DNA from: a bacterium
GTDB taxonomy: Bacteria; Patescibacteriota; Minisyncoccia; Phycocordibacterales; UBA12445
Reading direction: 5' to 3'
NCBI GenBank assembly: GCA_030648005.1
Contig: JAUSIP010000004.1
Location: forward strand, 1 to 61,321
DNA: 61,321 nucleotides
A program made the translations under genes and the position numbers. The notes beneath the pieces are model-generated. The model searched no databases and was not told the DNA's origin. It saw nothing but the letters and a program-made list of their open reading frames with translations. Positions 3,134-51,665 of this stretch are shown here, piece after piece (within the stretch, counting starts at the first letter, position 1; each line of letters begins with the position of its first letter).

Positions 3134-3709
3134 TTAAGCGTTCTGACTGAATTTTTTGATGCCCAACCAGATCAAAGAAATTAAAGCTAGCCCAAGGATG
3201 ATGACGCGGAGGTAATCGTCCATATCAGACCAGTAGCGGATCGAGCCGATTATAAAGGAAAGTACTCCGCCCATAGATAATCCAAGTGAGACAGGCGTGT
3301 TCTCGCCCGCATAGTAACCGGCGAACATTGAGAGCATACCGAGTACAACTAAGGCCACGAATACGTTGCGGTTGTAAACTCTGGAGGTGTCTTCATAATT
3401 CTTACTGCAGGTAAATTGCACATTACAATATCCGCGATACACGGAAGTGTACTCTCCGGCCGGTGTGGTAAATGGGGCCGGTACCATCTTCTGCCCCTTA
3501 GGATAATACTCCGCGCTCTCGTTCCACTGACCGCCGACAGCAAGGCAAGAATCTTTCGAATCCGGCGGGACATTAACCTGTTCTACCTTACAAAAATTCT
3601 CATATACCGGCGCTTTATAGACCAGCTTGATGGCAAAGTTGAAAAAAAGGTTAAGTACAATGACGATAGCGAGCGCTAAAGTCCACTTAAATATATTGTT
3701 TGTTTTCAT
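3134..3709 (-). CDS. hypothetical membrane protein (N-terminal TM, Cys-containing extracytoplasmic segment, 3 C-terminal TMs)
   Basis: Hydrophobic segments WTLALAIVIVLNLFFNFAI, VFVALVVLGMLSMFAGYY, LGLSMGGVLSFIIGSI and VIILGLALISLIWLGI. ATG 3709 is preferred over GTG 3745 because TATAAT (3721-3716) ends 6 nt before it. Confidence 0.6.
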   Translation of the reverse strand: MKTNNIFKWTLALAIVIVLNLFFNFAIKLVYKAPVYENFCKVEQVNVPPDSKDSCLAVGGQWNESAEYYPKGQKMVPAPFTTPAGEYTSVYRGYCNVQFTCSKNYEDTSRVYNRNVFVALVVLGMLSMFAGYYAGENTPVSLGLSMGGVLSFIIGSIRYWSDMDDYLRVIILGLALISLIWLGIKKFSQNA

Positions 3710-4462: not shown

Positions 4463-4525
4463 TATTGCAAATCAGTGTTCTCTAATATAGGCTGTAATAG
4501 GAAAATACAGAGGAGGTGCGTTGGT

Positions 4526-4969
4526 TTGGCAAAACTACTTGGGATTGCATTCAAGAAGAAAAGCAAAGCTCCAATGGAAGTCATAACTAAAGCTGAAGTG
4601 AAAGAAGGCTATGGTATCATCGGCACCAAGCCGAGCAAGGAATCACGTCAGATAACTGTGTTGTCAAGTTACCAGTGGGAAAGAGCCTGCAGGGAAGCCG
4701 GTCAAAGATTGAACTGGACAACTCGACGAGCAAATCTGTACATGAGTGGATACTCATTCTGCAGCAGAGATGTCGGTAAACTTCTAAGGATTGGGAAAGA
4801 AGTTGTGCTCGAAGTAATAGGAGAAACCAAGCCTTGCTCCAGAATGGATGAGGCCTGCTCGGGACTTAAGAAGGCACTGACTCGCGACTGGCGTGGAGGC
4901 GTAACCTGCCGAGTCATCAAAGGTGGGACCATTGAAGTCGGGGATGAGGTCTGGATAGAGCGTCAATAG
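4526..4969 (+). CDS. MOSC-domain protein (YiiM-like)
   Basis: VKEGYGIIGTK...RQITVLS...RANLYMSG...ETKPCSRMD...GGVTCRVIKGGTIEVGDEV matches the MOSC beta-barrel pattern with the conserved Cys. AGGAGG 4511-4516 lies 9 nt before TTG 4526. The longer track ORF from 4442 starts inside the terminator. Confidence 0.7.
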   Translation: MAKLLGIAFKKKSKAPMEVITKAEVKEGYGIIGTKPSKESRQITVLSSYQWERACREAGQRLNWTTRRANLYMSGYSFCSRDVGKLLRIGKEVVLEVIGETKPCSRMDEACSGLKKALTRDWRGGVTCRVIKGGTIEVGDEVWIERQ

Positions 4970-11899: not shown

Positions 11900-13695
11900 T
11901 ACTTTTTTAAATGATAAGTTTTGTAGAAATAAGAGTCTTCATCTTCAATCAACTTCTTTGGATCCCCTTCTTCAACCACTCGCCCGTTATCAAGAACAAA
12001 AAGTCTGTCAGCGTCCATCACTGTAGAAAGCCTGTGAGCAATTATTATTATGGTGATCCTGCCCTTCAAACTGTGAATCGCCTTCTGGATTAATAGCTCC
12101 GACTCGTTATCTAGGGCACTGGTCGCCTCGTCTAAAATAATCACGGACGGCTTTCTTGCCAGTATCCTGGCTAGGACAATTCTCTGCCTCTGTCCGCCCG
12201 AGAGCATTACCCCCCGATCTCCGACCAGAGTCTTGAACCCCTTCGACTGCTTGTCTATGAACTCTATGGCGTTGGCAAGCTCTGCTCCCATCTTAATATC
12301 TTCATCTGTTACACCGTCGTCATAAAAACGGATATTATTTTCGATTGTGTCGTGCATCAAGAAGACATCTTGCGAGACATATCCGATAGATTTGCGCCAG
12401 CTCTTTGTCTCTATCTCATTTATATCTATTCCGTCGAGCGTGATCCTGCCATCTGTTGGCTTCAAGAATTTCAACAGCAGATCCGCGACCGAAGACTTGC
12501 CCGCACCAGATGGTCCGATTAGTCCGACGACCTCGCCCTTCTTTATCTTAATATCAATATCAGACAGAATCGGATGTCCGTCTTCATAAGAGAAGCCTAT
12601 CTTGTCTAGATGCAAGGTCTTGCTGAATTTAAAAGGCTTCTTGCCGGAAGTATCCTCTTTATTTTTCTCCACCTCGTTCTTGAACGCCAGGATATTCTTA
12701 AGGAACGGAGTCTGTTCATTGACTGAGTGGAAAGCGGCCTGTGTGTTGTCTAGGTAAGTGAAGATCTTCTGGATCAGATACACTGTCACAATAAAAGAGG
12801 GCAGATTGAAATTTGGCTGTTTAGAATAATAATAGAATAGCGATGAGATGAAGACTAGCGATACCGGTTGCATAAAGTTGGCGAGAGCGGATCGAAAAAC
12901 AACTATCTTCATATTCAAAACTTTCATCAGATCGTAGAAGCCCTCACCCTTTTCAATAACTCGATCTTCAACAGTCAGAGATTTAACATTCTTAGCACCG
13001 GAAATATTTTCAATCAGATAACTTGAAACTAGCTTCTCCGTCTCAGCCATCTGACCAAAAGTAGCTCTGTTCTTTTTAACGAACGGAAAGAGCATCAGTA
13101 CGGCCAGCATACCGACAAGCAAGGTCAAACTGGTTATACCGGAAGATATATTGAGTGCGAAGAAGAGATACACCAGGAGACCTGTCGAGGATACAATGAA
13201 GCGAGAAAGATAGACCATTGTATCGGAAGTCGTCTGCATATCTCGAAAGATTGTCGCCTGGATATAACCCAACTTCTTACCAAGGAGAAATGTCCACTTA
13301 GCCGCAAAAACCGACTTCAGCAGACTCTTAACGGACTGATTCTTGTAGTCGATCATTGTCGTATAAGAAAAGTATGAGAATAAAATCAGGACGATAGCCC
13401 TAATAAGAAACAAGCTGATAGTCAGACTGATCAGAAAAATAAGATCATGCTCAAAAGGTAGGTAACTTAAATATTTTGTAATATTTCTGGATATGAAGTC
13501 TTCAGCGGGTATACTGCTTTTAGTAAAAAAAGAGAAAACGGGTATAAGAACGTTGATGCCGACACTTTCCAGTAGGCCACCAAGGAAGCCGAGAAGGGCA
13601 AGCCCCAAAAGCTTGACTCTAAAACCACGAAAAGATTCGTTCAAAACCCTGAAGACTTCGGATAGATTTAATATTTTTTTTATAAACTTTATCAT
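11899..13695 (-). CDS. ABC exporter, fused permease/ATPase (MsbA/Wzm-Wzt-role candidate)
   Basis: N-terminal 6-TM domain. Walker A is GPSGAGKSS, the signature is LSGGQRQR and Walker B is IIILDEATSALD. Confidence 0.85.
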   Translation of the reverse strand: MIKFIKKILNLSEVFRVLNESFRGFRVKLLGLALLGFLGGLLESVGINVLIPVFSFFTKSSIPAEDFISRNITKYLSYLPFEHDLIFLISLTISLFLIRAIVLILFSYFSYTTMIDYKNQSVKSLLKSVFAAKWTFLLGKKLGYIQATIFRDMQTTSDTMVYLSRFIVSSTGLLVYLFFALNISSGITSLTLLVGMLAVLMLFPFVKKNRATFGQMAETEKLVSSYLIENISGAKNVKSLTVEDRVIEKGEGFYDLMKVLNMKIVVFRSALANFMQPVSLVFISSLFYYYSKQPNFNLPSFIVTVYLIQKIFTYLDNTQAAFHSVNEQTPFLKNILAFKNEVEKNKEDTSGKKPFKFSKTLHLDKIGFSYEDGHPILSDIDIKIKKGEVVGLIGPSGAGKSSVADLLLKFLKPTDGRITLDGIDINEIETKSWRKSIGYVSQDVFLMHDTIENNIRFYDDGVTDEDIKMGAELANAIEFIDKQSKGFKTLVGDRGVMLSGGQRQRIVLARILARKPSVIILDEATSALDNESELLIQKAIHSLKGRITIIIIAHRLSTVMDADRLFVLDNGRVVEEGDPKKLIEDEDSYFYKTYHLKK

Positions 13696-47724: not shown

Positions 47725-49404
<1,680 letters not shown>

Positions 49405-49561: not shown

Positions 49562-49876
49562 CTATTCTGTTATAACCGCTAACACATTACTCTCGCTCAG
49601 TATGAAATACTCCTTACCGTCCACCTTCACTTCATCCGGTCCGTACTTTGTAAAGAGAACCTTGTCTCCAACTTTAAGTGACATCGCGACGAGATTGCCG
49701 TCATCTGTCATCTTGCCCGGGCCGACAGCCACCACCACACCCTGCTCCGGACGCTCCTTCTCGGCTGTGTCAGGAATAAAAATTCCGCCCTTCGTCTCCT
49801 TACCCCGCTCATGTTCGCTTATCGTCTCGACTATCACGCGATCACTCAACGGCCTTAAATTAATCTTTTTACTCAT
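49562..49876 (-). CDS. groS: co-chaperonin GroES
   Basis: LRPLSDRVIVE...GGIFIPDTAKE-like...GKVVAVGPG pattern, 104 aa. Confidence 0.95.
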   Translation of the reverse strand: MSKKINLRPLSDRVIVETISEHERGKETKGGIFIPDTAEKERPEQGVVVAVGPGKMTDDGNLVAMSLKVGDKVLFTKYGPDEVKVDGKEYFILSESNVLAVITE

Positions 49877-49952: not shown

Positions 49953-50048
49953 CACTATCACTTAGGTTGCAGATACCCTAATTTTGAGACTGATATTACA
50001 GCGAACAATGCAGAACTTATTTCCAGATCAGTTGTAGTATGTTGCTAA

Positions 50049-50090
50049 ATTATACTAAAAGTACGACCGTGACTATGATAGAAAATCGAC
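50049..50090 (-). promoter_or_regulatory. promoter/operator-like repeat, copy 1 (distal upstream of groES)
   Basis: Minus strand reads TCGATTTTCTATC-ATAGTCACGGTCGT-N8-TATAAT. The 14-nt core (50063-50076) is identical to 50726-50739, with the same 8-nt spacing to a -10-like hexamer. Confidence 0.4.
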
Positions 50091-50100
50091 ATTATTCAGA

Positions 50101-50691
50101 TCACACATCAGCAGCAAGATCGAAACTTTTTCTCAACCATCTATCGTTCTCCAATTTTTCAACGACCATAAATAATACATCCTTCCCAAATTCAAAATCA
50201 GTTTTTAGAAGAAAAATAAACTCCTCGCAGTCATAAGGAAAGACCCACACGCTATTCTGCACTTTTACGAAACCTATATTTACAAGCGAGGCTCGCAAAA
50301 GATCACGCTCAGATCTTCTATACTCTTTAATATCGAAAATAACCACCCTCCACTTACCATCCCATTCGATCTTACTTTTATCTATATTAAAATTTCGAAT
50401 TTGATACTCGGCTAAAGCCTTCTCCCCTTTTTCTGTAAGTCTTATATATTTACTTTCTCCCCGCTGTTCAAATACAATAAGCCCCCTTTTCTGAAGTTTG
50501 CCAATTGTGGATTTCAAATAATTGTTAAGGTGATATTTCCTTTTACCCAGACCTAGTAACTCCAACGCTTGGATTGCGTTAGGGGCAAGCACCGCCATTG
50601 TTACCAACCCGCTGATAGCTAAACAAGAAAGAACCGCATTGATAATCGTTCCACGGCCTATCGGCCTCTTGATATCTTTTTTCATATTCAT
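50101..50691 (-). CDS. membrane-anchored winged-helix + Cas2-like/PaaX-like domain regulator
   Basis: N-terminal hydrophobic helix IINAVLSCLAISGLVTMAVLA. wHTH-like segment STIGKLQKRGLIVFEQRGESKYIRLTEKG. WDGKWRVVIFDIKEYRRSERDLLRASLVNIGFVKVQNSVWVF fits the Cas2/PaaX ferredoxin-fold pattern. Start is ATG 50691 or 50685; the track start GTG 50703 is also possible. Confidence 0.55.
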   Translation of the reverse strand: MNMKKDIKRPIGRGTIINAVLSCLAISGLVTMAVLAPNAIQALELLGLGKRKYHLNNYLKSTIGKLQKRGLIVFEQRGESKYIRLTEKGEKALAEYQIRNFNIDKSKIEWDGKWRVVIFDIKEYRRSERDLLRASLVNIGFVKVQNSVWVFPYDCEEFIFLLKTDFEFGKDVLFMVVEKLENDRWLRKSFDLAADV

Positions 50692-50711
50692 TATTTTTGC
50701 CACTTAGAAGT

Positions 50712-50753
50712 TTTATACCATCAGCACGACCGTGACTATAGTATAAAAACGAT
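50712..50753 (-). promoter_or_regulatory. promoter/operator-like repeat, copy 2 (upstream of the regulator gene)
   Basis: Minus strand reads ATCGTTTTTATACT-ATAGTCACGGTCGT-N8-TATAAA, about 20 nt upstream of the regulator start codons. Confidence 0.4.
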
Positions 50754-50754
50754 A

Positions 50755-50782
50755 AAAATAAAACCCCGGCCAAATGCCGGGG
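50755..50782 (-). terminator. Rho-independent terminator of the 73-aa gene
   Basis: CCCCGGC-loop-GCCGGGG (7 bp, 50764-50782), followed on the minus strand by TTTTATTTTT. Confidence 0.7.
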
Positions 50783-50794
50783 CTGGGTGTAGGA

Positions 50795-51016
50795 TTATCT
50801 CCTTTTACCACAAAGCCAATTGATGCAGGAGCGAAACTTACGCCAGAGGTATTCGACACAAAGAGAGAGAGAAGATCTATTCTTTAGCTTTCTTTCAGCT
50901 ATGATATCGTTCGCCCGCTTGTAACATTCTTCCAAGTTCTTCTGGAACTTCTTTTTCTCCTCCCAAGCCCTATTAGACGCCCGAATATGTTTGTCATTCC
51001 GATCGTGATTAGACAT
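50795..51016 (-). CDS. hypothetical small basic protein (73 aa)
   Basis: AAGGAGG lies 9 nt upstream of ATG 51016 and a terminator lies downstream. The protein is helical and Lys/Arg-rich with 3 C-terminal Cys. No family recognised. Confidence 0.55.
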   Translation of the reverse strand: MSNHDRNDKHIRASNRAWEEKKKFQKNLEECYKRANDIIAERKLKNRSSLSLCVEYLWRKFRSCINWLCGKRR

Positions 51017-51112
51017 TTTAAACGACCTCCTTGTTCATTGATATTATTACCACATCGTGCTACTTTTGGCAAAGAGATTTAGTTGTTTGATTTAATAAAA
51101 AGGAGGAGACAA

Positions 51113-51352
51113 ATGAACCGAAAGAAAGATCCGATGCTGGCGGGACTGTGCAAGAACTGCGACAATAATTACCGGGCTATCACGCTCGCCTCACAACTCT
51201 GTGGAAGACCAAAGGAAAAAACGGCAACTTGTCCGGAATGCAGGAGATGCAAAACCCGACGCGGCTTCAAGCGATGCGCGGACTGCGCTGTGAACAAGAA
51301 GAATCAGTGCTCTATCTGCAACTGTAAACTGAAAAAGAGAATGAAGAAGTAG
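51113..51352 (+). CDS. hypothetical small cysteine-rich basic protein (79 aa, 11 Cys, multiple CxxC)
   Basis: AGGAGG 51101-51106 lies 6 nt before ATG 51113. Cys motifs are CKNC, CPECRRC, CADC and CSICNC. A terminator follows at 51363-51388. Confidence 0.55.
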   Translation: MNRKKDPMLAGLCKNCDNNYRAITLASQLCGRPKEKTATCPECRRCKTRRGFKRCADCAVNKKNQCSICNCKLKKRMKK

Positions 51353-51362
51353 TAAGATACGG

Positions 51363-51388
51363 CCGCCCCCTAGATCGGGGCGGTTTTT
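51363..51388 (+). terminator. Rho-independent terminator
   Basis: CCGCCCC 51363-51369, loop CTAGATC, GGGGCGG 51377-51383, then TTTTT. Confidence 0.75.
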
Positions 51389-51446
51389 AATTGCAGTTGC
51401 TTTTATTACCCCCATATGATATGGTATAGGAAATTAAGAGTTACTT

Positions 51447-51665
51447 ATGCAATTCCTACCTTGGATTCAAATAGCCCTGGCAACCATTCTTATTGGATTG
51501 GTCCTTTTGCAGCAAAGCGAAGCAGGCCTTGGTGGATGGTCAGGCGGGACATCCGGAGCATCAAATTTCAGAACCAAAAGAGGCCCGGAAAAAATGATAT
51601 TCGTACTTACCATTGTAATTGCATTAGCATTTATCGTATCTTCTGTATCAGCACTCTTTGTGTAA
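51447..51665 (+). CDS. secG: preprotein translocase subunit SecG
   Basis: 72 aa with two TM helices flanking a Gly-rich loop, LLQQSEAGLGGWSGGTSGASNFRTKRG; this is the classic SecG pattern. The overlapping 51416-51685 frame is rejected. Confidence 0.65.
   Translation: MQFLPWIQIALATILIGLVLLQQSEAGLGGWSGGTSGASNFRTKRGPEKMIFVLTIVIALAFIVSSVSALFV

Follow-up and report, generated by a model that had tools for sequence, protein, structure and literature searches.

Bacteria of the Patescibacteria have tiny genomes with few recognisable regulators. Among described proteins, the regulator studied here is closest in sequence and fold to PaaX, the repressor of phenylacetate catabolism in Escherichia coli. 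PaaX binds palindromic operators at promoters and possesses an N-terminal winged helix and a Cas2-like middle domain (PDB entry 8a39), both of which are also found in the protein under study. In contrast to PaaX, however, the latter is about 100 residues shorter, lacks the PaaX_C domain and starts with a strongly hydrophobic N terminus. In addition, its family comprises several paralogues per genome, and sites of 36–42 bp bracket the regulator's own gene.

Several other systems share single traits with this locus. A regulator gene located between two sets of its own sites, as is proposed here, is known from lambda CI, where looping between the operator sets OR and OL is an established way to tighten autoregulation. 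The loop at our locus would, in contrast, measure ~0.7 kb and enclose one gene with one site per side, and the regulator is at most a proposed dimer. In REP/RAYT systems (REPtrons), a gene present in single copy has palindromes of its own class on both sides, and paralogues of one genome have different palindrome classes with few copies elsewhere, just as observed here. However, Pfam and fold matches show that the regulator is not an HUH/Y1 transposase, its palindromes mostly lie beside family genes in the 1.24 Mb of loci sampled, and the upstream copy has promoter geometry. Integron-type cassettes differ in that the copies described here are inverted in 16–17 loci rather than all directly oriented. 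CRISPR Cas2 shares the ferredoxin-like fold and the FDI and QxSVW motifs with the regulator, which nevertheless scores below both Cas2 cut-offs and is fused to a winged helix. A winged helix combined with a possible single membrane segment is also found in ToxR and CadC, membrane-integrated one-component regulators; here, however, the hydrophobic segment lies on the N-terminal side of the DNA-binding part and is not followed by a periplasmic sensor domain. Finally, the locus resembles HrcA/CIRCE in that a would-be repressor site occurs upstream of groES in a stretch that is devoid of CIRCE. In contrast to HrcA, the regulator has no HrcA domain, as Pfam detects a PaaX_M domain and a DUF6293_C winged helix only, and the association with groESL is not conserved across relatives.

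Results

A repeat pair brackets a PaaX-like regulator gene

The DNA analysed here, referred to as the window, is a stretch of 61,321 nt on contig JAUSIP010000004.1 (assembly GCA_030648005.1). The gene for the PaaX-like regulator is located on the minus strand at 50101..50685 and encodes 194 aa as called, with alternative starts up to a GTG at 50703; its neighbours are groES, an ORF of 73 aa and secG. The 14-mer ATAGTCACGGTCGT (minus strand), which an initial annotation of this DNA had reported at two sites, was found as an exact match at both of them, 50063-50076 and 50726-50739, and no further copy with up to two mismatches occurs elsewhere in the whole window. Around the 14-mers, gap-free similarity extends over 40 nt at 80% identity (50050-50089 versus 50713-50752); the initial annotation had counted 32 of 42 identical positions by hand alignment. 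The short palindromes CTATCATAG and ACTATAGT that had been attributed to the two copies were likewise recovered. Exact 14-mer pairs occur 70 times in the window compared to a mean of 22 after shuffling, and such a pair alone is therefore unremarkable. At a threshold of at least 32 of 40 identical positions, the 40-nt pair was the single one in the window, and none was obtained in 15 dinucleotide shuffles.

The upstream copy (50713..50752, minus strand) includes the 14-mer at 50726-50739 with the centre CGGTCG at 50727-50732 and occupies the position that is typical for upstream sites of the family. It forms an imperfect palindrome with the arms TTTTATAC and GTATAAAA, and the hexamer TATAAA (50717-50712) is part of the right arm. 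A terminator-like hairpin with a T-run (50762..50784, minus strand) ends the 73-aa ORF (50795-51016) and sets it apart from the regulator unit, so that this copy lies between the hairpin and the regulator gene. The downstream copy (50050..50089, minus strand; 14-mer at 50063-50076, TATAAT at 50054-50049) is in direct orientation relative to the upstream copy. It begins 12 nt past the regulator stop codon and lies ~173-187 nt before groES; the distance from its centre to the inferred start of groES's own promoter is ~150 nt. The positions of both copies thus correspond to those initially described.

In both copies, exactly 8 nt separate the 14-mer from TATAAT or TATAAA, which had been regarded as -10-like hexamers. 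The spacing was as reported. However, the hexamers are located inside the right arm of the site and, thus, do not represent independent evidence for two promoters. With regard to hairpin potential, the upstream copy reached -12.4 kcal/mol (z = -3.2), and the downstream copy, at -2.9 kcal/mol (z = +0.8), does not fold. As the downstream copy is 80% identical and yet unfolded, it is the sequence that is conserved and not a hairpin.

Scans of the window for Rfam families, tRNAs and tandem repeats returned nothing, and no array-like, tandem or regularly spaced repeats of the CRISPR type are present in it. A three-mismatch match to the 14-mer (12137-12150) and a weak tblastn match (12232-12489) both fall inside the same ABC-transporter gene on the other strand and were rejected as chance.

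The regulator combines a winged helix with a Cas2-like domain

The regulator consists of a hydrophobic N-terminal segment, a winged helix with recognition helix and wing, and a Cas2-like ferredoxin-fold domain. Pfam analysis identified PaaX_M (PF20803; 6e-19, 68.4 bits at a cut-off of 24) and the DUF6293_C winged helix. Scores remained below the cut-offs for the Cas2 models PF09827 (16.7 versus 23.8) and TIGR01573 (19.7 versus 24.5 bits) and far below that of the PaaX equivalog TIGR02277 (48.7 versus 264.55 bits). By sequence as well as by fold, the best PDB match was E. coli PaaX (8a39), followed by the PaaX-like entries 3kfw and 3l09 and then by Cas2 and VapD. AF2 models from 34 and 120 sequences agreed with each other and were confident for residues 53-190, which are arranged as a helix, a beta-hairpin wing, a further helix and a beta-alpha-beta-beta-alpha-beta domain. 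The protein has a PaaX-like fold but terminates ~10 residues past the Cas2-like domain, and PaaX_C is absent.

Residues 1-53 were of low AF2 confidence, even with the deeper alignment of 120 sequences. The N-terminal segment has a Kyte-Doolittle mean of 2.1 over 19 residues without internal charges, and a mean of at least 1.6 was found at this segment in 98% of 120 homologues. It thus looks like a putative membrane segment. The protein had been proposed to be membrane-anchored, and the hydrophobic, membrane-like N terminus is in line with this proposal; the charge is ~+3 on either flank, and as both flanks are equally positive, either topology fits. If the segment served as a type II anchor, the DNA-binding part would sit outside the cell, which counts against a role of the repeats as operators.

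The family is large, with 699 matching clusters (50% identity level, E value up to 1e-30) and more than 587 matches in GTDB species genomes. The latter are all Patescibacteria-type MAGs, often with several members per genome and with up to six paralogues. In databases, the members are mostly mislabelled as Cas2, which the invariant FDI and QxSVW motifs of the family indeed resemble. Mean pairwise identity within the family is 57% in the Cas2-like domain compared to 31% in the winged-helix region.

Members of the family are bracketed by private palindromes

A sample of 87 family genes at 83 loci, all from MAGs, was assembled from the 80 best matches and a small number of look-ups; simple rules were used to assign gene starts and adjacent ORFs. 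For 66 of the 87 genes, the similarity between upstream and downstream flanks exceeded the 99th percentile of the controls. A palindrome of ~36-42 bp with a centre of the CG-NN-CG type was identified upstream of 66 and downstream of 60 of these genes, and its sequence was specific to the locus. Typically, one copy is located ~45 nt before the start codon and the second ~20-110 nt after the stop codon. Such palindromes closely accompany the family: in 1.24 Mb of sampled loci, 63 of the 73 with a CG(GT/AC)CG centre lie within 250 nt of the end of a family gene, leaving 10 that occur elsewhere. A metagenome scan for close homologues returned a single locus, L091, which has the same bracket beside a convergent tsaD gene.

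The site in the window is an imperfect member of these palindromes. The two nearest homologues (80% and 70% identity) carry ATTATA-N3-ACGGTCGT-N3-TATAAT both 5' and 3' of the gene, and groES is adjacent in neither case. Throughout the sample, the centre is almost universally CGGTCG or CGACCG, with CGATCG, CGGCCG, GCTATAGC and GCCATGGC as rare variants. The asymmetric CGGTCG is thus favoured relative to its symmetric counterparts CGATCG and CGGCCG. This bias is not predicted for a symmetric dimer and, hence, counts against the sites being operators. Each gene, in contrast, has arms of its own. Half-sites from the two copies of a gene have an identity of 0.85, compared to 0.43 for paralogues of the same genome and 0.38 among all pairs, and six paralogues of one MAG have six different palindrome arms. 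The combination of a conserved centre and variable arms is mirrored by the conserved Cas2-like domain and the variable winged helix of the proteins. Site classes visibly track protein subfamilies; globally, half-site similarity correlates weakly with the sequence of the winged helix (rho 0.04-0.05; confounded by descent), which again argues against operators.

The identity between the two copies of a gene (0.83) is higher than the self-complementarity of the sites (0.79), and the same applies to imperfect sites (0.78 versus 0.69). That the copies match each other better than their own reverse complement, and that the downstream copy in the window is unfolded, favours recognition of the sequence by a protein over a role that is structural only.

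At a few loci, additional copies occur. At L077, a third copy of the palindrome stands before an SPFH gene, with an extended -10 box in between, and in the genome to which both L012 and L043 belong, the palindrome of the L043 paralogue has a matching site at L012. Both cases are evidence for a putative regulon. At two further loci, rows of sites extend over two or three adjacent intervals: between rplE and rpsN of L080, the regulator gene and an ORF of 99 aa are bracketed by one palindrome in three copies, and at L073 a similar string of sites precedes fusA. A full-text search of the literature returned no description of either the regulator family or the two-sided bracketing. Bracketing of the family genes by palindromes therefore appears to be new to the literature searched, as an unusual two-sided layout of a PaaX-like regulator and its predicted operator.

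The upstream copy is located at the promoter of the regulator gene

The two copies differ in their relation to promoter signals. Of the upstream sites, 21 of 27 have a good -10 box behind them, compared to 22 of 54 downstream sites, and the median distance from the centre of the upstream site to this box is 28 nt. The end of the -10 box is separated from the start codon by a median of 8 nt (most commonly 6 nt), and by 12 nt or less in 26 of 43 loci. As the box is so near to the start codon, many mRNAs of the family appear to be leaderless, and the upstream site covers the -35 region. Since the upstream copy directly adjoins the -10 box of the regulator gene, we regard it, from its position, as a predicted autoregulatory operator in preference to other readings. 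Across the family, the centre of the upstream site near -40 would be compatible with activation of the class II type as well as with occlusion of the -35 region. The centre of the window's upstream copy lies nearer to -25, which would fit repression.

For the downstream copy, two simple functions were rejected. As to a promoter, a -10 box at the offset seen upstream was present in 2 of 32 loci compared to 3-5 in controls. As to a terminator, T-runs were not enriched, following 8 of 40 downstream and 6 of 46 upstream copies. A second operator past the stop codon, with an excess of neither -10 boxes nor T-runs, counts against interpreting the sites as operators. The downstream neighbours also provide no common denominator. 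Of 77 such genes, 42 are on the same strand and 35 (45%) are convergent, and no function is shared among them (four methyltransferases, three NUDIX proteins and one Cpn10). Neither paa genes nor an integrase are among the 25 most frequent Pfam families of these neighbours, and paa genes are also absent from the contexts of close homologues.

Paired sites do not accompany groESL

In this genome only, the downstream neighbours of the unit are groES (49562-49876) and groEL (47725-49392), both on the minus strand. The initial annotation proposed that the regulator co-regulates groESL as a functional analogue of HrcA/CIRCE. Two observations reported along with this proposal are correct: groES has a canonical promoter of its own, TTGACT-N16-TATATT (49952-49925, minus strand), and CIRCE, TTAGCACTC-N9-GAGTGCTAA, has no match in the whole window when up to three mismatches are allowed. 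A dedicated HrcA/CIRCE-like control of groESL was not supported. At none of 82 other loci does groESL adjoin the family gene; it is located within 10 kb at two of these, and the groESL promoters there are without a palindrome. As the sites accompany the regulator family irrespective of the gene that lies downstream, the analogy to HrcA/CIRCE fails, and the bracket is independent of groESL.

Comparison of synteny led to the same result. Nine relatives were chosen by GroEL identity (88-92%), eight of which were compared at the DNA level. Gene order is kept as RNase J, SBP, secG, a variable interval, groES and groEL, with cofD directly after groEL in some relatives and at a greater distance from it in the rest. 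The regulator is absent between secG and groES from all nine, and the site upstream of groES is missing in seven of the eight compared. In the closest relative (L084, GroEL 92% identical), 144 nt without a site separate secG and groES, and the groES promoter is conserved nearly base for base as TTGAC-N17-TATATT. Six others (L086, L087, L089, L090, L092 and L093) have other small genes and no site in this interval; L090 is from the same assembly as L001, the locus of the 70% homologue. The remaining relative, L085, is devoid of the regulator but has one intact 42-nt palindrome (GATTgTATgTTATAgtgATGG followed by TCGTcgtTATAAtATAtAATC), which matches 12 of 14 positions of the window 14-mer and lies ~185 nt upstream of the groES start.

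The absence of the regulator from relatives and the variable secG–groES interval indicate that the unit is an insertion-type polymorphism. The regulator unit is thus, as judged from this comparison, a portable and self-bracketed element in a variable spot. The alternative that the repeats are junctions of a single-gene insertion is consequently right in part: presence or absence of the unit and the solo site of L085 agree with it, whereas the repeats are intact conserved palindromes and not scars. No hairpin terminator was found between the regulator gene and groES. An input of the regulator to groESL in this genome is accordingly conceivable but would be secondary and not part of a conserved circuit, and the solo site of L085 leaves some room for a genuine link to groES within a narrow clade.

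Discussion

The repeat pair in the window is probably the paired binding site of the PaaX-like regulator encoded between the copies, with arms that are private to the gene, a centre that is common to the family and an upstream copy predicted to be autoregulatory. We infer that the regulator binds both copies of the palindrome as a dimer, in which the Cas2-like core would be positioned over the centre, both being conserved, and the arms, which vary, would be read by the likewise variable winged helices. The upstream copy covers the -35 region of the regulator gene and adjoins or overlaps its -10 box; binding there would autoregulate the gene. The second copy might complete the unit by forming a loop or by blocking read-through. 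Of the circuit proposed initially, autoregulation is therefore plausible, with the upstream copy as candidate operator at the regulator's promoter, and dedicated control of groESL is not. In this genome, the downstream copy together with read-through from the regulator promoter may add a regulator-dependent input to groESL. To judge from the loci compared, any such link is a lineage-specific by-product, presumably, rather than a dedicated heat-shock circuit.

A mobile or recombining single-gene cassette would explain the polymorphism differently. The palindromes would then represent ends or recombination sites at whose centre the encoded protein, which has a Cas2-like nuclease fold, or a host recombinase acts, and units would be gained and lost at solo palindromes. 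This would account for the presence or absence of the unit in a variable spot, where the closest relative is without it and an intact solo site marks the corresponding position in L085, and for homologues of 63-80% identity in unrelated contexts. The three copies around the regulator and the 99-aa ORF at L080 and the string before fusA at L073, as rows of bracketed genes within ribosomal-protein operons, are also in accordance with a cassette, as are sites that hug the coding sequence on both sides, an asymmetric centre resembling a crossover region and the Cas2-like FDI and QxSVW motifs. However, the paralogues of a genome are old, share just 40-50% identity and differ in their arms and, thus, give no sign of recent transposition. 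Simple integration would result in direct repeats only, whereas the copies are inverted in 16-17 loci, about a third, and direct in 20-34. Furthermore, no recombinase is consistently adjacent, contigs from the single public run containing this genome show no excised or rearranged form at the repeats, and the promoter geometry of the upstream copy is consistent throughout. We consider such a cassette unlikely. Its more specific version, in which a Cas2-fold protein recognises the private arms and nicks or recombines at CGGTCG, so that a REP/RAYT-like or integron-like cassette is gained and lost at solo palindromes (secG–groES, rplE–rpsN), is quite unlikely.

Very unlikely, in turn, is a dedicated groESL repressor that acts through the downstream copy as a functional counterpart of HrcA/CIRCE. 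The copy does face groES with the same spacing to its TATAAT as at the regulator's promoter, CIRCE is missing from the window, no terminator hairpin intervenes, and the homologous solo site of L085 is similarly placed. Yet the TATAAT belongs to the site's own arm, and the conserved sigma-70-type promoter of groES lies ~100 nt downstream of the site, which is too far for occlusion. Neither the other family loci, with groESL adjacent in none and nearby in two of 82, nor the nine relatives without the regulator, seven of eight of which have no site, point to such a circuit. It is still more improbable that the palindromes are merely structural RNA or DNA hairpins, i.e., bidirectional terminators or insulators that require no specific protein and are kept alike by duplication or gene conversion. 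Many sites do form near-perfect stems of 17-20 bp (-24.7 kcal/mol and z = -8 at L011), and A-runs and T-runs prolong some of the downstream and solo copies (L012:3079, L048, L033 and L080). However, T-runs are not enriched downstream, the upstream copy precedes the -10 box and is hence not contained in the gene's own mRNA, and the downstream copy in the window has no hairpin potential despite 80% identity. Moreover, termination would require neither a universal CGGTCG centre nor identical private arms at both ends. A paired binding site of the regulator is therefore the reading that we favour.

For the window itself, control of groESL is not to be inferred from the adjoining repeat. The second copy behind the genes and the asymmetric but universal centre suggest a function beyond ordinary autoregulation. 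If each member of the family binds its private 40-bp palindrome, pairs of regulators and sites could be mapped from sequence alone in unculturable organisms, and the family would constitute a natural set of mutually insulated DNA-binding specificities on one scaffold.

Palindromes at regulator loci

Across all loci carrying a homologue of the PaaX-like regulator, the palindromic sites displayed a strong preference for an asymmetric CGGTCG/CGACCG centre, which occurred in approximately 74 of 85 sites; the symmetric centres CGATCG and CGGCCG were much rarer. This preference contrasts with the orientation of the centre, which was near random relative to both the gene and the partner copy (20 direct, 17 inverted).

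Several of these loci harbor more than two palindromes. At locus L080 (4803-6915), three copies of one palindrome (AATACCACTTTTTTCACGGTCGTGAAAAAAGTGGTATT) bracket the regulator gene together with an ORF of 99 aa, and the bracketed block is located between rplE and rpsN within a run of ribosomal-protein genes. At L073 (10205-10460), three different CGGTCG-centred palindromes are clustered within at most 250 nt 5' of fusA, one of which, 36 nt in length (TTTACTCAATTTATACGGTCGTATGGATTGAGTAAA), has an identical match in the closed Campbellbacteria genome CP011215 (locus L052, 19209-19244). At L077, a third copy of the palindrome of the local regulator (4508-4549) has a TspO gene on one side and an SPFH/Band 7 gene on the other. 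An extended -10 box (TGATATAAT) follows this copy, an arrangement that makes the SPFH gene a candidate member of the regulon of this regulator.

Upstream of the family genes, the -10 box ends no more than 12 nt 5' of the start codon in 26 of 43 loci, most commonly at a distance of 6 nt. This short spacing suggests that mRNAs of the regulator family usually lack a leader.

Repeats and the secG-groES interval

Within the window, 70 exact 14-mer pairs were found compared to 22 in shuffled sequences. This excess points to internal paralogy, which probably resides within the extended series of minus-strand genes at 13.7-47 kb; the corresponding genes of the closest relative, L084, are glycosyltransferase genes.

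Comparison of the window (50795-51665) with the loci of close relatives lacking the regulator (L084-L090, L092, and L093) identified the secG-groES interval as a hot spot at which the content of small genes varies within this clade. In L084, the two genes are separated by only 144 nt with nothing in between. Cys-rich zinc-ribbon ORFs occupy the interval in the window (51110-51352), L085, L086, and L089, and unrelated ORFs of 66-207 aa are present in other relatives. The window additionally contains an ORF of 73 aa (50795-51016) and the regulator unit.

In one relative, L089, groES is preceded by a hairpin (3478-3550) whose stem is perfectly paired over approximately 31 bp (GTGAGTTCAACAAAGAAATAGAACACTTGATA...) and which is not related to the CGGTCG palindromes.

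Most relatives share a conserved element, TAAATGTAAC-N5-TGGTAGTATC-N-GTTGTTA, positioned 30-60 nt 5' of the groES -35 box (L085, 4468-4510; L087, 4540-4575; L089, 3565-3600; L090, 3575-3605). The element is degenerate in L084 and in the window (49955-49985). It includes an extended -10-like sequence, TGGTAGTAT, and could serve as a second promoter for groES or be the clade's real stress operator.
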